From Thermodesulfovibrionia bacterium (lineage in GTDB: Bacteria > Nitrospirota > Thermodesulfovibrionia > UBA6902): 64,000 bases of DNA. Within the stretch, counting starts at the first letter, position 1; each line of letters starts with the position of its first letter. Under the pieces are notes generated by a model, which searched no databases, had not been told where the DNA came from, and worked only from the letters and a program-made list of their open reading frames with translations. Positions 7,916 through 21,287 of this stretch are shown here, piece by piece. The stretch spans positions 264,811 to 328,810 of the forward strand of contig CAVOUK010000002.1 of NCBI GenBank assembly GCA_963699585.1, written 5' to 3'. A program made the translations under genes and the position numbers.

Positions 7916-8467
7916 CTATATTTGTATGAACTTTAATGCCGCGCCGATAAGTGCGGCCTGTTCTTTGCTCATCTCGCCCAAACTGTCACGACGTTCCGTC
8001 ATGCGCCGGAAGCGAGTGAAGTCTGTCGGCAAACCTTCGGTGTCCACAAGATAAGCAATTTTCTGGATGATCACCCTGATGTCTTCCGGATGTTTTATCC
8101 GGCCTTTTATCTTGGGGAAATATTTCATTCTCATCCGGCCTCTGGAGCTGTCGAATTCGATATCTGTCACCCGGTGCATCGCGAGAATAACGTAATCACC
8201 GAGCGATTGCCAGAAGATCTCATCGTGATATTTCCAGGACGGGAGGTAAAAGCGCAATAAGGCAGGCTGTTTTTTCCCGCTTGGCGAGATGCTCTTATAA
8301 AGAACGACGGGGAAATTATCTGCCTCTTGATCATCGATCTTTTCGAGCTTTTCAAATAAATTGATTCTTTGCTGCTTACGATAAAGTTTATCGATCTGAT
8401 CTAAAACGCCGCCCTGTCCAATGCCGTCCTGAACTTTCTTGAGTACCGTTGTTATGGTGTTTGTCAT
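7916..8467 (-). CDS. hypothetical protein (183 aa, no family recognised)
   Basis: Long ORF in the same orientation and closely spaced between corA and the GGDEF gene. I see no recognisable motifs. Confidence 0.5.
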   Translation of the reverse strand: MTNTITTVLKKVQDGIGQGGVLDQIDKLYRKQQRINLFEKLEKIDDQEADNFPVVLYKSISPSGKKQPALLRFYLPSWKYHDEIFWQSLGDYVILAMHRVTDIEFDSSRGRMRMKYFPKIKGRIKHPEDIRVIIQKIAYLVDTEGLPTDFTRFRRMTERRDSLGEMSKEQAALIGAALKFIQI

Positions 8468-8516: not shown

Positions 8517-9495
8517 CTATATCCAACTCAATCGCCTGAAAATAAAAAACATGCACAGCACCTGCAGTATCGAAGCGGCCATGATGACAATAAAGGTCGT
8601 ATAGGTACCGAGGAACATCCATGGGTTATCTACCCCGCCGGGCAAGATGAACATTCATACCGTAAAGGGTCCCTATAAGGGTCACGGGGATGGAGAAGGT
8701 AAACAGGAGCGTCAGGACGGTAAGTATCTTGTTGGTCCTGTCGGAGCTTATGATCACGTCTGTCTCCTTGTAGATATCGAGTGTTTCCCTGCATTCTTCA
8801 AGTGTGGTCCAGACCTTGTCTATGTAATCAGCAAGGTCGCTGAAATAGTCCCCCATGTCCTCACCGGTAAAACGCTTTATTTTTTTTTCAAGCTCATAGA
8901 TGACCCGCTTAAGCGGGAAAACCGTTCGTCTGAAATTGGCGATATTATGGCGCAGGCCCGTCACCTCTCTGACCGCGCTGACATGCTCATCAAAGACCGC
9001 TTCTTCAATATCTCCAATCGTGCTAAGTATCTTTGAAGCCATGACAAGCAGGTTCTCGGACAGACTGTAAATAATCTCATAAAGCAGACTTGCAGGCGAT
9101 GACAAACCGTCAGCAAGCTGAGTCTTCCCGTTCCGTGACGTATCAGGGCGGTTGCCTTTACAGTACAAATTAAAGAGATTTTGCAGCGGCTTCAGCTCTC
9201 CGTTATGCACGGTCACAAGAAAATCCTTTCCCACGAAGACCGAGAGCTGTGTGGGGATGGAATATTTCTTTTCCTTAACGTAACGGGGGAAATGCAGAAT
9301 GATGAAGAGATAGTCATGATATTCATCGATCTTCGGGATCTGGTTTTTTGAAAGACAATCCTCAAGATTGAGGTCATTGAATGGGTGGATCGTTTTCAGG
9401 GAATTTACAAGCTCGGTTTCAGGAGCATCTATATTGATCCAGGTGAAATGACCGGCGTCAACTCTGTATGTAGCAAGAAGCTCGCTTTTGATCAT
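8517..9495 (-). CDS. corA: CorA-family Mg2+/Co2+ channel, frameshifted near 8640
   Basis: ORF 8626-9495 ends ...TLIGTLYGMNV. The expected continuation LPGGVDNPWMFLGTYTTFIVIMAASILQVLCMFFIFRRLSWI* is in the -1 frame and ends at 8517. The start overlaps the metK-like stop (ATGA). Confidence 0.8.
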
Positions 9496-10700
9496 TGTGC
9501 ATCATCCCTGAGCTCCGCAGCCTTATCCGTCAGCTCCCAGGGTAGTCCTATATCCATTCTGCCCACGTGCCCATAGGCGCTGAGTTTTCTGTAGAATCCT
9601 CCCTTAATAGTAGATGGAAGGTATCTGAGGTTAAACCGTTTGAGAATCCCTGCGAGACGAAAATCAAAATGTCTCCCGATGAGTTCGGCGATCTTATCAT
9701 CCGGTATCCTGCCGGTGCCGAAGGTCTCGACCTGAATGCTGACCGGTCGTGCATGTCCTATCGAATAGCTGAGCTGAACCTCACATTCATGAGCAAGTCC
9801 GGCTGCTACTGCATTTTTGGCCGCATATCGCGCTGCGTATGCGCCTACCCGGTCGATCCTCACAGGGTCCTTTCCGCTGAGAGCGGCGCCGCTGTGGCGT
9901 GAATATTCTCCATAGGTGTCTATGGCGTTTTTTCGCCCGGTGAGTCCGGAATGGACAGAAGGCCCGCCGACGATGAAGGGACCGTCAGGATTAATGAAAA
10001 TCCCTGTCCTCTCATCAGGCCTTATTTCTTCATCCTGGAATGCCGGGGTGATTATGTTGTCAATAATGTCGTCCCGTAGCTGTTGAAGATCAGGCCCTCC
10101 TTTGGCAACCGGCTTAAGCTGGGATGCTATGACCGTAACGCTGTGGATCCTGCGCGGCCTGTTGTCCACATATTCAACACCGACCTGTGTCTTGCCGTCA
10201 GGCATGAGGTATGGGAGAATTTTCTGAATTCTCACCGACGACAGCTTTCTTGAAAGCTTATGCGCAAGCCATAACGGAAGCGGCATAAATGAGGCTGTCT
10301 GATTGCATGCATAACCGAAGAGCGTCACCTGGTTTCTGACCGGGATGCGCTCCATCTCCTCATCGGAGAGTTTCCGCTCGTCGAAATTACGCTCATTGTT
10401 CAGCGGTAGTTCTTTAAGGCTTGTAATGATGCTGCATGTCTTGCTGTTGAAATCCTTCTGATCGTATCCTATCTGGTTGATAACATTGCGCGCTACGTTT
10501 GAGAAGTCTACATATGCGGCTGATGAAAACCTGGCAGCGATAAAAAGTATGGCTGTCGAGACAGCGCATTCTGCTATGACCGATGAAAAAGGGTCCTGCT
10601 GGAGAAAATGATCGACGATCGCATCGCTGATCTGATCGCACAGCTTATCAGGATGCCCTTCTGTAACCGACTCTGAGGAAAAAATGAAGTCCTTTTTCAT
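9492..10700 (-). CDS. divergent S-adenosylmethionine synthetase (MetK)-like protein
   Basis: SESVTEGHPDKLCDQISD, LMPDGKTQV, GLTGRK, DTYG...SGKDP.RIDR and AYAARY are all present. GAGDQG, GGEI and GGP.GD.G are replaced (see finding). Confidence 0.8.
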   Translation of the reverse strand: MKKDFIFSSESVTEGHPDKLCDQISDAIVDHFLQQDPFSSVIAECAVSTAILFIAARFSSAAYVDFSNVARNVINQIGYDQKDFNSKTCSIITSLKELPLNNERNFDERKLSDEEMERIPVRNQVTLFGYACNQTASFMPLPLWLAHKLSRKLSSVRIQKILPYLMPDGKTQVGVEYVDNRPRRIHSVTVIASQLKPVAKGGPDLQQLRDDIIDNIITPAFQDEEIRPDERTGIFINPDGPFIVGGPSVHSGLTGRKNAIDTYGEYSRHSGAALSGKDPVRIDRVGAYAARYAAKNAVAAGLAHECEVQLSYSIGHARPVSIQVETFGTGRIPDDKIAELIGRHFDFRLAGILKRFNLRYLPSTIKGGFYRKLSAYGHVGRMDIGLPWELTDKAAELRDDAQ

Positions 10701-13482
10701 GCCACTGCCTCCTTTGCGCTTTCATGCTGACATTGTTGATGTTACCGGCTTCAGTGTCCTTGAGCAGCATCTTTTGCGGTCTCTTCGTGGCCTCGTTAAT
10801 AAGGAGAGGCGTTACTGCTGTGCCTCCGACCACAAGCCAGTCGGCAAGACCAAGAGGCGTGAGACCAAGCAGGTTTCGCAGGCCGGGCACAACCATTGCC
10901 AGTCCCTGTAATCCTGCAGAGCCTGCAAGCGCGGCGTCGAGATAACGGTTCGGCGGTAGGGGCGTACGCCGTTCGCCCTTACTTTGTCATATATGCTGTG
11001 CTTTTCAGAACGGCAGCTTAAGGCATGGAGTATCTGTCCGAAGGTTAGGCTCATAAATGCCATAGTGCCTGCCTGTGCTCCCATGCCATATCTCATGATC
11101 CCGTAGCCGTAGGCCCCCAATGAGCCTGCTGAGAGCATCGCTGACTTCAAAGGCGATCCGTTTGAAGTCATCCTTCCTGACAATCGGCTCATCAGGATTT
11201 CTCGGAGGCATGCTGAGCACATCAGGTTCAGGCGGTTCAAGCGCAAGCGCCAGTCCCGGCGCTATGTCCGAGATGAGGTTGATCCAGAGGAGCTGCATGG
11301 CAGTAAGGGGCTGTCCCATACCGGTTGATATGGCCCCGAACATGACCATGATCTCGCTCAGGTTCGTTGCAAGGAGAAAGTGGACCGATTTACGGATATT
11401 GTTATAGATCGTTCTTCCCTGACTGATTGCAATTATCATAGTCTCGAGGTTGTCGTCTTCGATAACGACATCCGCAACTTCACGTGCCACATCCGTGCCG
11501 GTGTGCCCCATCGCAATACCGATGTCAGCTGCCTTAAGCGCCGGCCCGTCATTGATCCCGTCCCCTGTCATTGCCACAACCCTTCCTGAGGACTGAAGCG
11601 ACTGGACGATCTGGAGCTTATTGGCAGGGCTAACGCGCGCAAATACATGCACCTTTTCAGCCAGCGCCTTCAAGACATCCGGATCGAGGCTGTTCAGGTG
11701 TGTTGAGTCGAGTATTTCGAGCTGCCCGTCTTTGCTGAGGTTCAGTTCTTTGCCGATGGAGTAAGCGGTCGGTCCCTGGTCTCCGGTGATCATGACTGTA
11801 TCAATTCCCGCAACATGATACATGCCTATAAGTTCCTTTACACCGTTTCTTACAGGGTCCATCATTCCGGAAAGACCGAGCCAGACAAAATGCATGGTAT
11901 CGAGTGAGTTATCAGAGGTATCCGGCGTGTCTGACAATTCATTCAATTCATCGGAATATGCATAGGCAAATCCAAGCACCCGTAAGGCTTCTCCGGCCAT
12001 ACGCTCATTTTCGATCTGTATTGCTTCCCTGCTTTCCGCCGTGAGAGGGAGTTTTTGACCGTCCTGCATGTGCCATATACAGATCGACAGGACATCCTCA
12101 GGACTGCCTTTTAAAGCGAATATGGCTGCCCTGCGGTCGTGTGAGGCATTAGGATTAATATCGTGAACAGTTAACATAATATTGCTGTTTTCAGACCTGT
12201 GTCGTATCGTCCTGAGAGGGAATTTGTTCCGGAGTTCAGGCACGTGAACACCCGTGCTTATCGCCACCTGAAGAAGGGCATTCTCGGTTGACGAGCCTCG
12301 GAGTAATAATTCTCCGTTTTCGCTGGAGACGTCGCTTTCATTGCAGAGACATGAAATATGAATGAGTTTCAGCAGTTCATCGCACTCATATGGGTTAATA
12401 TCAGAGGCATCGTTTCGGAATCTCCCTTCAGAGACCTTTAGCCTCTTCATCCCGACGAACATGGAGATAACAGTCATTTTGTTCAGGGTAATGGTCCCGG
12501 TCTTGTCAAGACAGATGGTCTGCACCGAACCGAGAGTTTCTACTGCGTCAAGGTGACGGATAAGTACGTTGTGTTTTCTCATGTTCCTGATGCCGAGCGC
12601 CAGTGTTGTGGTAGCTACCATCGGCAACCCCTCGGGTACTGCGGCAACAGCAAGAGCTATAGAGGTCTTCAGCATCTGGAGAAAGCCATAGCCTCTCAGC
12701 AGTCCTATCAGAAAGACGAGACCACACACGGCTCCGCTTATATAAACAAGCTGAGTGCCCATTTTGTCAAGCTGCCGTTCCATCGGTGTTTCAGGAGGAC
12801 GCGCGGTTCCTACGAGCGTCTGTATTTTGCCGATCTCCGTAAATTTACCGGTTGACGTTACAACTGCAAGTCCCTGTCCCCCGGTCACGAGCGTGCCCAT
12901 ATAGACCATATTCGTCCTGTCCGCAAGCGGGATATCACCTTCAGTAAGCGTCTGAGAGCTTTTTATGACCGGCATGCTCTCACCGGTAAGCGCTGATTCA
13001 TCAACGCTCAGATGATGAGATTCGATCAGCCGCGCGTCCGCTGCTATGTAACTTCCCGGTTTCAGGAGAAGAATATCACCGGGAACTATACTCTCGGCAG
13101 ATAAATTATTAAGCACTCCGTCTCTTATGCATAAAGCAGACGGCCTCACAAGATTTTTTAGAGAATGGATGGTCTTTTCCGCCTGTGTCTCCGTTGTATA
13201 GCCTATGACCCCGTTAATGACGACCACTCCGGCAATCACGACCGCATCGGCGATGCCTCCCGTTGCTATGGAGACTGCTGCCGCAACGCCAAGAAGGGCG
13301 ACAGGAAGGGATTTAAACTGGTCAAAAAAAATGCTGAGTCCGGAACGGGGGACGGATTCGGGGAGCAGATTTGGCCCGAATTTCTTTAATCGCTCAGACG
13401 CGGTGTTTCCTGAAAGCCCCGCTGCCGGCAGCACACCCGCAGAATCAAGCGCTTCACCGGCGCTTTTCAGATGCCATTGCAC
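10648..13482 (-). CDS. P2-type (SERCA/PacL-like, Ca2+-type) cation-transporting P-type ATPase, C-terminal part frameshifted twice
   Basis: LTGES, VPEGLP, ICLDKTGTIT, KGSPE, MMDPVR, MITGD and MTGDGINDGPALKAADIGIAMG are present. The C-terminal TM region continues in ORFs 10812-11246 and 10648-10896, with shifts near 11135 and near 10970. Confidence 0.85.
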
Positions 13483-13880
13483 CTGAGGCTGGTCTTCAGC
13501 ATGGATGACGCTCTTGCGGACCTGGCGACGGCTCTTATTGAGTTTCCTGTCTGGCTCAGTATGACTTCCTGCTGATCTAATGACCGATGTAGATCAGGCT
13601 GCCGGGTTTTTGTTGTGAGCGAGGTACTCTCGGGCGTATGATTATTGCCGTTATATTCTTTTACCGCGGCCTCAATGACCCTGCTTATTATTTCAGCGGT
13701 ATTGCCTGAGTTGAAATTGACAATAACGCTTCCGGTCAGGACATTTGCGGAAAAGCCTGTTATGCCAGGATGAAGACTCAGCGCCTCTTCAATTTTTATC
13801 CTGAGCGGATCTGTTCTGTAAAGCCCTTCAACTTTTAACCGTACCCGGCCTTTTACTGAATTGTGAACGGTATGAACCAC
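13467..13880 (-). CDS. HMA-like 'GRxRxK' small protein b (may originally be an N-terminal domain of the ATPase)
   Basis: VKGRVRLKVEGLYRTDPLRIKIEEALSLHPGITGFSANVLTGSVIVNFN. It overlaps the GTG start of the ATPase. The ATPase frame is open for another roughly 40 codons upstream. Confidence 0.65.
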   Translation of the reverse strand: MVHTVHNSVKGRVRLKVEGLYRTDPLRIKIEEALSLHPGITGFSANVLTGSVIVNFNSGNTAEIISRVIEAAVKEYNGNNHTPESTSLTTKTRQPDLHRSLDQQEVILSQTGNSIRAVARSARASSMLKTSLRCNGI

Positions 13881-13908: not shown

Positions 13909-14026
13909 CGCAGATGAACGCTGATAACTGCCGATACAACAAAACGTTATAGTTATTTTATCCTTCACCTTTCCGGTGAAGGATAAATTTATTTTAACTT
14001 CTAAAAAGATCCGCGTTAATCTGCGG
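13909..14026. repeat. degenerate member of the CGCAGAT/ATCTGCG inverted-repeat family flanking a hairpin
   Basis: GACGCAGATGAACG (13908-13921) against CGTTAATCTGCGG (14014-14026). It encloses the perfect hairpin at 13958-13986. Confidence 0.4.
13958..13986. terminator. perfect 12-bp stem / 5-nt loop hairpin between the copy-B repeat-protein gene and the ATPase operon
   Basis: TTATCCTTCACC-tttcc-GGTGAAGGATAA. The U-tract is better on the + strand, while both neighbouring genes are on the - strand, so its function is uncertain. Confidence 0.4.
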
Positions 14027-14048: not shown

Positions 14049-14726
14049 TTAACCCCGTTTGCTACTTGTCTTGGTTTTAACCTCCACAGGGGCGGCCTTC
14101 TTTGTGGTTGCGGCTGTTTCAGTCCGTCGCGGTTTTGGGAGCGCAACGTTTGCAACATCCTTAACTCCCTCAACCACGCCTACAAGCATATCCCTGACAG
14201 ATTGTACTGCAGTGGTACCTATTGTGCCTGCTGCTTCCATAGCGCCGTTTACCGCCGATATCGCGACATCACCCGCATTGCCGCCGACTTCCTTGCTTGC
14301 TTCGATTACGCCGTCAACTGCCCTCCGAGCAACAAGGGCCACATCTGCGCCTATATCTGCGGCCCCCTTTACAGCGCCTTTTACTGTCTGACTGGAAACG
14401 GTAATTATGTCTCCTCCGACGTCACTTACGCCCATGACTATTCCCTTTGCAACGCTTTTGGTGCTCAGGATGAGCCCTGTGCCAACTTCTTCAGTTGCCT
14501 GAATAGCGCCCTTTACAACATCTCTTGTGATGTTGACGCTCTCTGTTGCTACCTCACCCGTTGCGCGGAGCGCATTGGATACAGTGCTCCGAACAAGCGT
14601 TACGATCTCAGCCTCGATCTCATTGATCCCTTTAAGGCTGCTGATGACGCCGTCTTTGACAGTGGAACCAGCCCTGCCGATACCTTCCTGAAAACCCTCT
14701 CCGCTCATCACTTGCTCATTCGTCAT
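14049..14726 (-). CDS. 22-residue-repeat protein, copy B (with Lys/Thr-rich C-terminal tail)
   Basis: GGAGG RBS. 225 aa. Same repeat register as copy A (TRDVVKGAIQATEEVGTGLILS / TKSVAKGIVMGVSDVGGDIITV / ...). Roughly 60% identical to copy A by eye. Confidence 0.8.
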   Translation of the reverse strand: MTNEQVMSGEGFQEGIGRAGSTVKDGVISSLKGINEIEAEIVTLVRSTVSNALRATGEVATESVNITRDVVKGAIQATEEVGTGLILSTKSVAKGIVMGVSDVGGDIITVSSQTVKGAVKGAADIGADVALVARRAVDGVIEASKEVGGNAGDVAISAVNGAMEAAGTIGTTAVQSVRDMLVGVVEGVKDVANVALPKPRRTETAATTKKAAPVEVKTKTSSKRG

Positions 14727-14846: not shown

Positions 14847-15326
14847 TCATTCCGGCTGCTTATTGTCAGAATTCGATTTAAGGAAAATATTAAGGGCATA
14901 CCATCCGGCTGCGTACCAGGGGATTGCAGCGACATTCCCCCTCCATACCTGGTATATGCCTGCACCAATGAGCGCAAGAACCGCAGCCCCGCCGACATCC
15001 AGTTCGTTCCCTGTAATATCACGTATGGCGACGTTTGCTTCCTTGAATGCATCGTTGACCCTCCGGTGGAGATGTGTACGGGTGTACCGGGGGCCTGCAA
15101 ATGTTAGAAGCTTATTTGTTTTTATCGTTTCAACAATGCTGACGGGATCATGTGAATGATGGATCAATATGCTGCCCGTAAGCTCGCTGATCTCAACTTT
15201 ATTTACTCCTTCAATGCCGGATATCTCATTTAAAAGAAGAGTAAGAAAGTTTATGTCCTTTCTTTTTGAAGGGACCTTGATCCTGATTCGTGAACCTGTT
15301 TGATGGCTGACAAAGGCAACCGGCAT
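14847..15326 (-). CDS. HMA-like 'GRxRxK' small protein c, with C-terminal transmembrane region
   Basis: MPVAFVSHQTGSRIRIKVPSKRKD...EISELTGSILIHH. The C-terminus DVGGAAVLALIGAGIYQVW...IPWYAAGWYALNIFL suggests two TM segments. The ATG lies 1 nt after the upstream stop. Confidence 0.65.
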   Translation of the reverse strand: MPVAFVSHQTGSRIRIKVPSKRKDINFLTLLLNEISGIEGVNKVEISELTGSILIHHSHDPVSIVETIKTNKLLTFAGPRYTRTHLHRRVNDAFKEANVAIRDITGNELDVGGAAVLALIGAGIYQVWRGNVAAIPWYAAGWYALNIFLKSNSDNKQPE

Positions 15327-15327
15327 G

Positions 15328-15618
15328 TCATGCCCCCGCTTCTCCCTCAGGAGCTGGGGCATGCGCAGTTTCGTTATGCGCTTCAGCCATTTCAGCTTTG
15401 GCCTCCGCGACGACATCTTCAGCGACTTCACTCAGCTCAGCAAAAGTCTCTTTCCCCTTCTCATAAAGTACAAGACCGCCCTTGATGGCTGATTTGAGCA
15501 GAGGCTTTGCCACTCCTGCCAGTGCAGGGAGCACTACCGGAGCTAATATCGCACCGCCGATACCGATTGCGAGACCTGTCAACAAATTGCCTTTTAAACC
15601 ATTATCGAATAATCCCAT
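15328..15618 (-). CDS. DUF5132-like small membrane protein
   Basis: GGAGG RBS before ATG 15618. MGLFDNGLKGNLLTGLAIGIGGAILAPVVLPALAGVAKPLLKSAIKGGLVLYEKGKETFAELSEVAEDVVAEAKAEM matches my recollection of the DUF5132 pattern. Confidence 0.5.
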   Translation of the reverse strand: MGLFDNGLKGNLLTGLAIGIGGAILAPVVLPALAGVAKPLLKSAIKGGLVLYEKGKETFAELSEVAEDVVAEAKAEMAEAHNETAHAPAPEGEAGA

Positions 15619-15798
15619 AACGCCTCCAATTGTTCTTGTGTATTGATAGCATGAGTTTAACACCGTCAAAACAGCGTGTCCATGGGATCTTTCATTACCT
15701 GCCTACTTTTCACTGAAATGTAATACTACTGTTATAACGGTGTAACAATAAACTTGCTAACGTATTGATAACGCACAAATATCAGGAGGTGGATAATT

Positions 15799-16660: not shown

Positions 16661-16997
16661 AAGACATTGTCCATGAAATGTGGACCAGGATACGATATTT
16701 TTCATCATAATTTAACATACGCTTAATATTACTGTAACGTTGCCGGTGTTATTGTAAACCATGATTTTGCTTGTCCTTATTTTCTCGATTTGCATAATCA
16801 CTTTTATAATACTTTTCAGCGCCAGGCCGAATCTTTTTGTTTTCTGGCTGATAGAAAATGTTTTTGGAAAAATGAAAATCTCAGAGGGCACGGAAAAAGA
16901 TACCGATAAAAAGGAGGGACAGAATATGTAACTGTATCACTGAATTTTATATTGCGGTTGTAACCATTAACGAAGTAAACAAGAATAAGGAGACAAT

Positions 16998-18009
16998 ATG
17001 AAAACGATTTTGAAATTAACATTGATTGCTTTATTGATTTTGTCATTTGCGCAAGTGCATGCGGCCGAGATGTTAAACGGCGCAGGAGCGACGTTTCCCT
17101 ATCCCGTGTACTCTGCATGGGCTTTTGACTATAACAAAGTGACAGGAGTGCAGTTAAATTATCAGTCCATCGGCTCTGGAGGCGGGGTAAAACAGATTTC
17201 TGCACGCACCGTTGATTTTGGGGCATCCGATGCTCCAATGACATCGGAAGAGCTTCAGAAGGACAGTTTATTGCAGTTCCCGGCGGTAATCGGAGGAGTG
17301 GTCCCGGTTGCGACATCTCGAAAACGTTGCGCCAGGACAGCTCAAGCTTGATTCCGATACGCTCTGCAAGATATTTCTGGGCGACATCAAATCCTGGGAT
17401 GATCCTCAGATAACTGCGATGAACAAAGGGCTCTCTCTGCCTAAAGGTGATATAGTTGTCGTGTATCGCTCTGATGGTTCGGGGACAACCGCTATATTTA
17501 CAGATTACCTCAGCAGTGTCTGTCCTGCGTGGAAAGAGAAGGTCGGAGCCGGGAAAGCAGTGAAGTTCCCGGTCGGCATCGGCGGCAAGGGAAATGAAGG
17601 CGTGGCAAATTACGTCAAACAGTCAGCCAACTCGATCGGGTATGTTGAGTTCGCCTATGCAAAACAGAACAATCTTGATTTTACTCAGCTCAAGAATGCT
17701 GCGGGCCAATTTATTACTCCGAGCTTCGAGAGTTTTGAGGATGCTGCTGCGACAGGTGATTTCGACCCCAAGAAGGATTTTTATCTTTGGCTGAATAACA
17801 CCCCCGGCAAAAATTCCTGGCCGATTGCCGGCGCAACATTCATCCTCCTTGCAAAGGAAAAGACCGATTCCAACAAGAACGTGGTCAAATTCTTCGACTG
17901 GGCTTTCAAAAACGGTGACAGTAAAGCGAAAGAACTGATTTATGTCCCGTTGCCGAATTCTCTGAAAGAGAAGATCAGGACATACTGGAAAGCAAATGGC
18001 ATTCAGTAG
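16998..18009 (+). CDS. pstS: phosphate ABC transporter substrate-binding protein PstS, frameshifted near 17310
   Basis: Signal peptide plus [16 protein letters not shown]...SIGSGGG in ORF 16998-17351. The rest (GQLKLD...YRSDGSGTT...) is in ORF 17308-18009. Confidence 0.85.
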
Positions 18010-18020
18010 ACAATAGTTTC

Positions 18021-18058
18021 AGAGAGGGGCAGGTCTGGTGCCTGCCTCTCTTTTTTTT
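18021..18058 (+). terminator. intrinsic terminator/attenuator between pstS and pstC
   Basis: AGAGAGGGGCAGG-tctggtg-CCTGCCTCTCT followed by T8. Confidence 0.8.
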
Positions 18059-18080
18059 CAGTCATGAAAGGTTATTCCAA

Positions 18081-19022
18081 GTGCCGACAACTACAAAAAA
18101 AAATTATGTTGATACAATATTTTCGTTTATTACCGCGGTTTCTTCTATTTCCGTCATCATACTGATCATCGGGATTATTTATGTTCTTATTTCTGAGTCT
18201 TCTCTTGCAATAGGGAAATTCGGTATCTGGGGCTTTCTTACATCAACAGATTGGAACCCGGTCAGGGAATCGTTTGGGGCGCTCACGAATATATACGGGA
18301 CGATTCTTACGACTTTCCTTTCTTTAATGTTTGCCATACCCGTTGCCATAGGGATTGCGATATTTGTCACAGAAATAGCGCCGAATTTTTTAAAAGGGCC
18401 TGTCGGAGCCGCCATTGAACTTCTCGCTGCGATCCCGAGCATTATTTACGGCATGTGGGGGCTCTTCACCCTTACGCCGATAATGAGCAGACATATAGAA
18501 CCGTTTCTCAAAACGATATTTGCGGATGTTCCGTTTGTAGGCATCCTTTTTCAGGGGACGCCTATGGGAATAGATATCCTGACGGCAAGTGTCATCCTCA
18601 GCATAATGATCATCCCCTTTACCGCAAGCATATCCAGAGATGCTTTTAATCTCACTCCTGCTGTAGTGAAGGAATCAGCGTACTCAATTGGGGCCACAAA
18701 ATGGGAGGTCGTCAAGGATGTCGTTATTCCTTATTCAAAGCTCGGTGTGTTTGGTGGAATAATCCTCTCCCTCGGAAGGGCCCTCGGAGAGACTATGGCT
18801 GTGGCATTTGTCCTGGGAAACAACCACAGGATAACAACTTCTCTCTTCGATGCGGCTGCAACGATTACAGTCACCCTCGCCAACGAGTTTGCGGAGGCGG
18901 ACAAGGACATCTATCTTTCATCACTGTTCTATCTCGCGCTTGTTCTGTTTGTGATGAGTTTTATCACTCTTGCAATAGCGAAATTCTTTCTCCTCAAGGC
19001 AGAGAGGAAATATTCACGATGA
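18081..19022 (+). CDS. pstC: phosphate ABC transporter permease PstC
   Basis: 313 aa polytopic permease with the EAA-like region LGRALGETMAV. pst operon context. Confidence 0.9.
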   Translation: MPTTTKKNYVDTIFSFITAVSSISVIILIIGIIYVLISESSLAIGKFGIWGFLTSTDWNPVRESFGALTNIYGTILTTFLSLMFAIPVAIGIAIFVTEIAPNFLKGPVGAAIELLAAIPSIIYGMWGLFTLTPIMSRHIEPFLKTIFADVPFVGILFQGTPMGIDILTASVILSIMIIPFTASISRDAFNLTPAVVKESAYSIGATKWEVVKDVVIPYSKLGVFGGIILSLGRALGETMAVAFVLGNNHRITTSLFDAAATITVTLANEFAEADKDIYLSSLFYLALVLFVMSFITLAIAKFFLLKAERKYSR

Positions 19023-19858
19023 CAAGAGAGCGGCAGAGGAAAATAGGAGGATTTATCGCCCTTTCTTTCAGCACGTTCGCAGCATTTCTGGGACTTTTCT
19101 CGCTCGTATTCATACTCGGCGACGTGCTCATACACGGGATAAAGGCGTTGAATCTGAGTCTCTTTACCAATGATCCCGCGCCTCTGGGGGTTACGGGAGG
19201 GGGGCTGAGGCATGCCTTTGTCGGCCAGTTGATGATAACAGCATGTGCAACATTGATTGGCGTGCCTGTCGGTGTGCTCGGAGGCACTTTCCTTGCAGAA
19301 TATGCGAGGGGAACAAGGATAGCGCGGCTTATCAGCATCCTCTCGGATATCATGGTCAGTGTCCCCTCCATCGTAATAGGTACTTTTGTATATGCGGTAC
19401 TTGTCACGCCGCTCGGTCATTTTAGCGGCTGGGCAGGAGCAGTTGCGCTTTCGATCATTATGATCCCGGTAGTGCTCAGGACTACGGAAGACATGCTTTC
19501 TCTTGTCCCCTGGACCTTGAGAGAGGCTGCATTCGCGCTCGGCGCCCCATATTATAAAGTCATTACTCAGGTGGTCTACCGTGGAGCTGCCACCGGAATA
19601 CTGACCGGCATTTTGCTTTCGATAGCAAGAGTAGCCGGAGAGACCGCTCCACTACTGTTTACTTCATTCAACAATTCCTTTTTCTCTATGGATATGCAGA
19701 ATCCGGTTGCTTCGTTAACCGTCACCATATTCCAATACGCAATGGGGCCTTATGATATCTGGCATGAACAGGCCTGGGCTGCATCGTTTGTGATCACGAT
19801 ATTCATACTGGTCCTTACAATAGCTGGAAGACTCATTATCAAATGGAGGTACAAATAG
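19019..19858 (+). CDS. pstA: phosphate ABC transporter permease PstA
   Basis: ATG 19019 overlaps the pstC stop (ATGA). [11 protein letters not shown]...[15 protein letters not shown]. The upstream part of ORF 18701-19858 is read-through inside pstC. Confidence 0.9.
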
Positions 19859-20622
19859 TGGCGAACAGTATTGAACTTGAGGTCAAAGGCCTTGACTTCC
19901 ATTATTCGGGAAATGTTCATGCCCTCAAAAAGATAAATCTGCCTGTTCACAAAAACATGGTCACGTCATTAATTGGACCGTCAGGCTGCGGAAAGACCAC
20001 CCTGCTCAGGTGTTTCAACAGAATGCATGACCTTTATCCAGGGAATAGTTACAATGGGGAGATACTTTTTCAGGGCGGGAATATACTCTCAAAAGGCACA
20101 GACCTCATCAACCTGAGAAGCAGGATCGGAATGGTCTTCCAGAAACCGACGCCCTTCCCCATGAGCATATTTGACAATATCGCTTACGGATTGAAACTGA
20201 ACGGCGTCAGCAAGAGGTCCGACATTTCCGAACAGGTTGAACGGGCGCTTGTGCATTCAGTGCTTTGGGATGAAGTGAAGGACAAACTTAATACAAGCGC
20301 GTATGAGCTTTCCGGCGGGCAGCAGCAGCGACTTGTCATTGCGAGGGCACTGGCGGTGGACCCGCAGGTGCTGCTTTTTGACGAGCCGACGTCCGCCCTT
20401 GATCCCATATCTACGGCCAAGATAGAAGAGCTTACCGCGATACTGAAGAAGGATGTCACTATTGTTATCGTGACTCACAATATGCAGCAGGCTGCGCGGA
20501 TATCCGACTGGACCGGATTCATGATGCTCGGTGAGTTAATTGAATTCGACATGACTCAAAAAATATTCACCGCACCTTCGGAAAAACTGACCGAAGACTA
20601 TGTCACGGGGAGGTTTGGATAA
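19843..20622 (+). CDS. pstB: phosphate ABC transporter ATP-binding protein PstB
   Basis: [29 protein letters not shown]. Confidence 0.95.
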
Positions 20623-21287
20623 TGAGTGTTTTCGATGAAGAATTGCAACAATTAAAAGACAAGATCCTGAAAATGGGCGCTTTGGTAGAGGATGCTATCA
20701 AGAGTTCCATACATGCCCTTGTGGAAAGGGACAATACGTTAGCCGGCAGAGTGATCGAGAATGACCGTGTTATAAATACACTTGATGTGGAGATCGACGA
20801 AGATTCCATCCGGCTCATAGCCTTGAAACAGCCGATGGCGATTGACCTCCGGTTTATCACAACTGCAATGAAGATAACCACTGATCTTGAAAGAATGGGA
20901 GACCTTGCCGTCAACATCGCGGAACGGGCGCTGGAGCTGAACGAGGAACCTGTTTTGAAGCCTTACATAGATATCCCCAAAATGAGAGAAATCGCCCAGG
21001 GGATGACACGGGATGCACTCGATGCCTTTGTAAGAAAAGACAAGAAGCTTGCAACAGACGTGATCATGAGAGACGATGAGGTGGACGACCTCAAACATGA
21101 AGTCTTAAAGGAACTGGCTTTTTTCATGGCCCAGGACCCTGCCACAGTTTCGAGGGCTATGAAGGTCAGTTTTGTGGCGCAGTACCTTGAACGTATCGCC
21201 GACCATGCAACCAATATAGCGGAGATGGTGATTTACCTTGTTGAAGGAAAGATAATCAGGCATACTGTTCCGCCTGCCGGGAAGTGA
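20622..21287 (+). CDS. phoU: phosphate uptake regulator PhoU
   Basis: Two PhoU repeats (DLERMGDLAVNIAE / YLERIADHATNIAE). ATGA overlap with pstB. Confidence 0.9.
   Translation: MSVFDEELQQLKDKILKMGALVEDAIKSSIHALVERDNTLAGRVIENDRVINTLDVEIDEDSIRLIALKQPMAIDLRFITTAMKITTDLERMGDLAVNIAERALELNEEPVLKPYIDIPKMREIAQGMTRDALDAFVRKDKKLATDVIMRDDEVDDLKHEVLKELAFFMAQDPATVSRAMKVSFVAQYLERIADHATNIAEMVIYLVEGKIIRHTVPPAGK

Follow-up and report, generated by a model that had tools for sequence, protein, structure and literature searches.

What does a homologue of the S-adenosylmethionine (SAM) synthetase MetK do when it is encoded behind a cation pump and the residues that should hold methionine are replaced? We addressed this question for a MetK-like gene in a stretch of 64,000 nucleotides from a Thermodesulfovibrionia bacterium of the Nitrospirota (contig CAVOUK010000002.1, positions 264,811 to 328,810), which is called the window below. 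To our knowledge, few enzymes are as conserved as MetK, and only one reaction is associated with its fold. A preliminary description, made from the letters of the window alone, had proposed a neofunctionalised MetK paralog. Our best explanation, to which we assign a probability of roughly 0.6 on comparative sequence evidence, is that the gene product is a functional protein from an ancient sister clade of MetK; it would be a pump-coupled enzyme of ATP or of tri/polyphosphate and not a SAM synthetase.

The MetK-like open reading frame (ORF; 402 aa, 9492..10700, minus strand) is intact and belongs to a clade whose members are linked to the pump. It has no indels relative to two close relatives, and a Shine-Dalgarno sequence read directly from the DNA (AGGAGG, 10708..10713, minus strand) lies 7 nt 5' of its ATG at 10700. 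The product matches all three MetK Pfam domains (PF00438, PF02772, PF02773), passes the TIGR01034 cut-off (380.2 bits against 309.4), and is 40-49% identical to the MetKs in PDB. An AlphaFold2 (AF2) model computed from 76 clade members (predicted local distance difference test, pLDDT, 92.1; predicted template modelling score, pTM, 0.91) was matched by Foldseek to 7R3B, the L. plantarum MetK with adenylyl imidodiphosphate (AMPPNP), methionine and SAM, with a template modelling (TM) score of 0.89/0.96 and a root-mean-square deviation of 1.4 Å. This superposition, together with the Pfam domains, confirms the earlier claim that the MetK scaffold is kept.

Replaced and retained residues of the active site

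Residue numbers follow the E. coli MetK reference sequence, which is identical to PDB 7LL3_A. Equivalent positions were read from three alignments, namely a HMMER pairwise alignment to 7R3B and MAFFT alignments of 120 and 335 sequences. Conservation was counted in a close set (120 homologues, accompanied by the canonical MetK of the same genome) and in a distant set (117 further members, 43-75% identical to the query). In MetK, the methionine amino group is held by E55 and D238 and its carboxylate by Q98 and K269, and I102 touches the side chain of methionine; the nucleotide contacts are D163 and D238 (ribose) and F230, which is stacked against the adenine, and H14 is the catalytic acid (PMC3853416, PMC1282579, PMC6850014).

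The methionine ligands E55, Q98, I102, D238 and K269 read R, L/E, N, H and R in the MetK-like protein, and these replacements are fixed clade-wide. The amino-group ligand E55 corresponds to R57 (codon 10530..10532; this and the following codons are on the minus strand); R stands there in 119 of the 120 close sequences, and either R or H in 112 of the 117 distant ones. The clade-defining H250 (codon 9951..9953) takes the place of D238, a ligand of both the ribose O3' and the methionine amino group, in all 120 close and 116 of 117 distant homologues. The carboxylate ligand K269 is represented by R281 (codon 9858..9860), with R in 120/120 and 113/117 sequences, respectively. In the GAGDQG motif, residues G117-D118-Q119-G120 are replaced by R122-N123-Q124-V125 (10326..10337). 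At the D118 equivalent, 118 of the 120 close homologues have N, and 101 of the 117 distant ones have N or H. Other changes include I56 to F, T43 to C (C45), R229 to P and G258 to S (S270). The signature motifs GAGDQG and GGGAFSGKD are absent, and PVRNQV and HSGAALSGKD stand in their place.

The gating loop has been rebuilt (residues 98-121, KELP...FDERKLSDEEMERIP, 10338..10409, minus strand) and is 5-10 residues longer than that of MetK. The MetK gating-loop residues Q98, S99 and I102 have no conserved counterpart in it, and the loop segment conserved in the MetK-like family is KELP...FDERxLSxEEIxxIP. In the AF2 prediction, the replacement loop with the FDERxLSxEEIxxIP sequence is partly helical. 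It could form a lid or a partner-binding surface.

The other half of the site is retained. The protein keeps the Mg2+, K+ and triphosphate ligands H14, D16, K17, E42, R244, K245, K265 and D271, as well as the ribose and adenine contacts D163, K165 and F230. Even in the distant set H14, D16, K17, D163, R244, K245, K265 and D271 are invariant; K165 is found in 98 of the 117 sequences, and position 230 is F, L, V, I or Y. An unbiased column comparison of 67 canonical MetK sequences with 92 non-redundant clade members gave 19 canonical-invariant columns that are changed in the clade (A40, G54, E55, Q98, S99, I102, V106, G115, G117, D118, G120, H189, D238, G253, G258, G260, K269, V270 and S273). 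They cluster around positions 54-55, 98-120, 238, 253-260 and 269-273. The same comparison gave 53 columns that are conserved in canonical MetK and the clade alike, among them every phosphate and metal ligand. All five methionine ligands are thus lost, and the half of the site that serves the nucleotide, the triphosphate and the metals is intact; the second-substrate pocket is remodelled and more basic (R57, H250, R281, R122-N123).

Most of the residue changes listed in the preliminary description are reproduced by the rigorous alignments, where the equivalents of E55, Q98 and D238 are not conserved. The readings of E55 as R, of D238 as H (GGPMGD to GGPSVH) and of D118 as N (GAGDQG to PVRNQV) all hold. 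The reading of Q98 as E is right about the replacement and uncertain about the glutamate, since the register is ambiguous and the position is L in the HMMER and 120-sequence alignments and E in the 335-sequence alignment only. The claim that the ATP, triphosphate and metal motifs are kept is true of the ligands, but one of the motifs quoted for it, SGKDP.RIDR, hides the change of the methionine-carboxylate ligand K269 to R281. Beyond that list, S99 and I102 are likewise gone.

The housekeeping SAM synthetase, the clade and its constraint

The genome contains a second, canonical metK (C2:149275-150396), which scores 600 bits on TIGR01034 and has all motifs intact. Scores on this model are bimodal, with true metK products at about 596-601 bits and the MetK-like clade at 372-389 bits, and the complete Manganitrophus chromosome carries one of each (596 and 389 bits). 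Matches in 201 Nitrospirota genomes were also bimodal: MetK-like proteins were found at 580-910 bits in 32 genomes, and canonical MetK at no more than 357 bits in nearly all genomes.

Four Nitrospirota genomes showed a MetK-like gene without a bacterial metK. The MetK-like protein was considered as the sole methionine adenosyltransferase (MAT) of these genomes, and two of them, which belong to the genus g73, are explained by an archaeal-type MAT (PF01941, about 538 bits), the apparent housekeeping SAM synthetase there (G179:C46:3575-4762, locus L093, and G151:C70:5491-6675). In G179 it lies outside the island around the MetK-like gene, behind a two-component system and beside housekeeping genes, a location by which we rejected it as an island component. 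No other MAT was seen in G127 (89% complete) and G193 (estimated 100% complete, 300 contigs), and assembly gaps are the most likely reason. Wherever the genome is well assembled, the MetK-like gene is never the sole MAT.

The MetK-like family was gathered by a search of 1.8 billion cluster representatives and a profile search. The wide set has C43, H238 and R269 in common, usually with S258, R/H55 and N/H118, and the window protein bears this signature (C45, H250, R281, S270, R57). In a maximum-likelihood tree, the MetK-like proteins form one clade (support of 99 in the Shimodaira-Hasegawa-like approximate likelihood ratio test, SH-aLRT) apart from all canonical MetKs (98), and the subfamily of the window protein is a tight, short-branched subclade (SH-aLRT 96). 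This branching points to an old, multi-phylum sister clade of MetK, which in its pump-linked form is apparently undescribed so far. A recent, lineage-specific duplicate was considered and is rejected by the deep placement.

The MetK-like gene is under strong constraint. Its ratio of nonsynonymous to synonymous substitution rates (dN/dS) is 0.053-0.054 against the two closest relatives (dS 0.5-0.75), tighter than both the main piece of the adjacent ATPase gene (0.13-0.14) and the CorA gene (0.14). The substitutions are fixed across more than 250 homologues, which is not what decay would be expected to leave.

With regard to the preliminary description, the core of the paralog proposal stands: the protein is a neofunctionalised MetK relative with replaced ligands under purifying selection. 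As a refinement, it comes from an ancient sister clade and is not recent. The companion statement, that this is not the housekeeping SAM synthetase, is upheld by the canonical metK in the genome, the replaced ligands and the branching outside the canonical MetK clade.

The pump partner, the operon and the phosphate neighbourhood

The conserved upstream partner of the MetK-like gene encodes a CoBaHMA-fused P2-type (Ca-pump-like) ATPase (10648..13880, minus strand; assigned by Pfam and NCBIfam). We surveyed the context in 80 genome loci from several phyla, whose MetK-like proteins are 70-95% identical. By record title they belong to Nitrospirota (58 loci), Thermodesulfobacteriota, anammox Planctomycetota, Binatota, Myxococcota-labelled metagenome-assembled genomes (MAGs), Deferrimicrobiota and Pseudomonadota. 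Every locus with upstream DNA has a same-strand P2-type ATPase of 1000-1090 aa with an N-terminal CoBaHMA (HMA_2) domain directly 5' of the MetK-like gene, and in at least 31 loci the two genes overlap by exactly 4 bp (ATGA). The pairing extends to a complete cyanobacterial chromosome (CP003590.1, 73% identity) and a Geminicoccaceae MAG (Alphaproteobacteria), and divergent clade members without K165 and F230 still overlap the CoBaHMA-ATPase gene; the contigs of P0122, P0135 and P0149 were too short to add to this picture. Among the 201 Nitrospirota genomes, the 32 with a MetK-like gene are exactly those with an ATPase orthologue (at least 1113 bits), and the two genes have adjacent coordinates. 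The MetK-like gene is co-inherited with that of the pump and usually coupled to it in translation; a physical or functional interaction of the two proteins may underlie this genomic coupling.

The typical gene order is DUF5132, CoBaHMA protein, 22-residue-repeat protein, ATPase and MetK-like. In the window, the corresponding minus-strand genes are a small DUF5132 protein as the first operon gene (15328..15669) and a CoBaHMA (Pfam HMA_2) protein (14847..15431), both in conserved synteny, followed by the repeat protein (14049..14726), which has 225 aa and no Pfam match and is a conserved operon member in 52 of the 80 loci. The gene downstream of MetK-like is variable, being CorA in 11-13 of 80 loci, CDF in 10-15, and otherwise DUF3562 or another CoBaHMA. 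In the window it is a CorA-family gene (8626..9495, minus strand), whose start overlaps the MetK-like stop (ATGA). The placement between a P-type ATPase and CorA reported in the preliminary description is true of this locus, and the ATGA overlap with corA is real; however, the conserved partner is the ATPase, and CorA, given its low frequency, was rejected as a conserved partner and is regarded as a lineage-specific neighbour. The overlap with the 3' end of the ATPase gene, also reported there, was seen at roughly 50 nt, but a 7-nt deletion and further frame breaks in this assembly account for it, and in relatives it is the 4-nt ATGA.

Several genes of the window are broken. Compared with the two close relatives, the ATPase gene has four single-base indels, with the 7-nt deletion just 5' of the MetK-like ATG, and is read in four minus-strand ORF pieces (13467-13880, 11005-13482, 10812-11246 and 10648-10896; indels relative to loci L006 and L007). 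A 1-nt insertion near 8647 cuts CorA short, and pstS (16998-18009) is in two pieces. The in-frame part of the pump is still under purifying selection. The frame breaks are most likely long-read assembly errors, and their occurrence in the ATPase, CorA and pstS genes suggests assembly-wide indel errors and not targeted pseudogenisation.

A number of further observations concern the pump and its operon. The Nitrospirota genome G155 has two full ATPase and MetK-like pairs (on C19 and C2). In another genome (L092, G098:C19, 7097-11665), DUF5132, CoBaHMA, repeat-protein and CoBaHMA-ATPase genes occur with a convergent Zn-ribbon and CoBaHMA pair and no MetK-like gene. Between the repeat-protein gene of the window and the start of the ATPase there is a perfect hairpin with a 13-bp stem (13957-13987), which may serve as an attenuator or as an intra-operon processing site. 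After CorA, the window encodes a 183-aa protein without a Pfam match (7916-8467), which has a homologue after CorA in L007 (family f28). The C-terminal tails of the pump are variable (36-67 aa), and no conserved docking motif was found in them; no riboswitch or other RNA element was found in window positions 1-24000.

Phosphate-starvation genes lie 1.3 kb from the operon start (pstS, split by its frame break, pstC, pstA, pstB and phoU; 16998..21287, plus strand). Of the 45 relative loci for which at least 15 kb of sequence was available, 20 have pst genes no more than 10 kb from the MetK-like gene, and 26 have pst, OlsB/OlsA-like acyltransferase or PhoH-like genes. Downstream of the MetK-like gene in L003, L008, L011, L020, L038 and others, several neighbours were seen repeatedly: an OlsB-like (Acetyltransf_5) and PlsC-type acyltransferase pair, a methylglyoxal-synthase-like gene and a gene for a low-molecular-weight (LMW) phosphatase/ArsC-like protein. 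Ornithine lipids, which contain no phosphate, are the products of OlsB/OlsA-type enzymes, and low phosphate elicits a response of methylglyoxal synthase; such neighbours would fit a theme of phosphate limitation.

A Pho-box-like candidate of three TGTWAY hexamers with 11-bp spacing (15719..15746) lies in the divergent promoter that separates the DUF5132 gene from an HMA-like gene on the plus strand. This pattern accounts for the only two exact matches in the 64 kb, and its overall count is not above chance. Upstream of pstS (about 16700-16745) there is a weaker phased series, TTTAAC/CTTAAT/TGTAAC, with no clean Pho-box match. Both sets of hexamers are possible, putative PhoB-type sites; with the count not above chance and no clean match at pstS, the pattern was discarded as evidence.

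Proposed function, rival explanations and significance

In the explanation that we prefer, the MetK-like protein would remain an active Mg/K-dependent enzyme. It would bind either ATP or free tri/polyphosphate and split or hydrolyse the triphosphate, and the former methionine position would be taken by an anionic co-substrate or by water. Together with the pump it would form a cation- and phosphate-handling module; one possible role is the turnover of tri/polyphosphate while the pump moves the Ca2+ or Mg2+ that is released. A precedent comes from the human MAT1A variants D258G and K289N (equivalent to D238 and K269), which lose SAM synthesis and keep tripolyphosphatase activity (PMC6850014). 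They are substituted at the positions of H250 and R281 and provide an example of the MAT fold handling triphosphate alone, but each is a single loss-of-function change in a genuine SAM synthetase, whereas the MetK-like family shows a co-ordinated and conserved remodelling of the site.

Several points weigh against this explanation. The substrate and the reaction are what we infer purely from sequence. Some divergent members have K165 changed to Q, T, V or S and F230 to L, V, S or G, so adenosine binding is not universal in the clade, and what all its members have in common could be a binding function and not a catalytic one. The sister pump cluster of G098 (45% identity) has no MetK-like gene, and hence the pump can exist without this partner. 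The pump is frame-broken in the window assembly, and the pst association may be inflated by the shared ancestry of the Nitrospirota loci. A fuller picture, which we put forward only tentatively, is a two-part machine of the MAT-fold enzyme and the Ca2+-type ATPase. The soluble enzyme would make or break tri/polyphosphate, or adenosylate an oxyanion, at the membrane, and the pair would act with the CoBaHMA, DUF5132 and repeat proteins as a store or release system for Ca/Mg-(poly)phosphate under the control of phosphate starvation. Such a system would be present in many anaerobic and some phototrophic bacteria.

Two explanations can be given little weight. A second, specialised SAM synthetase isozyme for local SAM supply would agree with the score above the TIGR01034 cut-off, with the public annotation as methionine adenosyltransferase and with G193, which shows no other MAT at an estimated completeness of 100% in 300 contigs. 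We regard it as very improbable, because none of the five methionine ligands is kept, SAM synthesis is lost in the equivalent human mutants (PMC6850014), a canonical or archaeal-type MAT is co-present wherever the assembly is good, and the protein is placed outside the canonical MetK clade. A duplicate decaying under relaxed selection, or substitutions created by assembly errors, might be suspected from the frame-broken ATPase, CorA and pstS around the gene. This is the least credible of the explanations and is effectively refuted, the MetK-like ORF being intact and without indels relative to its relatives, its dN/dS being 0.05, and identical substitutions being present in hundreds of independent assemblies.

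Two other explanations assign the protein a different role. The enzyme might be a new adenosyltransferase, in which a different and probably anionic nucleophile (an oxyanion or a thiol/thioether acid) attacks C5' of ATP; this would yield a novel adenosyl compound and inorganic triphosphate (PPPi). The retention of H14, the acid for C5'-O5' cleavage, and of D163, K165 and F230 in the subfamily of the window protein speaks for such a reaction, as does the gain of about four positive charges in the pocket (E55R, G117R/K, D118N, D238H), and H250 could act as a general base. We consider it rather unlikely, as K165 and F230 are gone in several pump-coupled sister subclades and the operon has no conserved candidate genes for an acceptor pathway. 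Alternatively, the protein might be a non-catalytic regulatory or sensor subunit, whose MetK fold would gate the P-type ATPase by binding ATP, PPPi, Mg2+ or K+. The obligate and often translational coupling to the pump across phyla agrees with this, and so does the decay of adenosine-site residues in divergent subclades where the pairing persists. It seems doubtful to us, given that more than 250 sequences, with identities as low as 43%, invariably keep the catalytic and metal ligands, which pseudoenzymes usually lose, that the dN/dS of the MetK-like gene is below that of the pump, and that the pump has no conserved C-terminal docking motif.

Compared with known systems, the MetK-like protein has the three-domain fold in common with canonical MetK/MAT (EC 2.5.1.6; TIGR01034; 1FUG/1P7L/7LL3, 7R3B and human MAT2A), as well as all the Mg, K and triphosphate ligands, H14, D163, K165 and F230. 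It differs from canonical MetK in the replaced methionine ligands, the rebuilt GAGDQG motif, the longer conserved gating loop and its separate deep clade; moreover, it is always encoded behind a P2-type ATPase and is never the sole MAT in well-assembled genomes. The archaeal-type MAT (PF01941), the housekeeping enzyme beside the MetK-like gene in g73, is the other SAM synthetase family; it is unrelated in sequence at the level compared and is not pump-linked. The neighbourhood of ccyA (calcyanin) in cyanobacteria that form amorphous calcium carbonates within their cells (iACC) likewise combines CoBaHMA/HMA_2 and DUF5132 with cation transporters, but no MetK-like gene or P2 ATPase pairing has been reported there, and the operon of the window has no calcyanin (10.1101/2024.07.07.602159; PMC8890360). 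We found no description of the pairing of a MetK-like gene with a P2-type ATPase in the literature searched, which did not extend to the CoBaHMA domain paper.

Hundreds of database entries label the MetK-like proteins as methionine adenosyltransferase. This name is probably wrong for the family, and metabolic reconstructions that count its members as SAM synthetases are probably wrong as well. If our preferred explanation is true, the clade would represent the first natural second function of the MAT fold, and a soluble, enzyme-like partner whose gene obligately accompanies that of a P-type ATPase would add a new kind of pump accessory. The MetK-like gene would then offer an entry point into an uncharacterised cation and phosphate system of CoBaHMA, DUF5132 and repeat proteins with pst neighbours.

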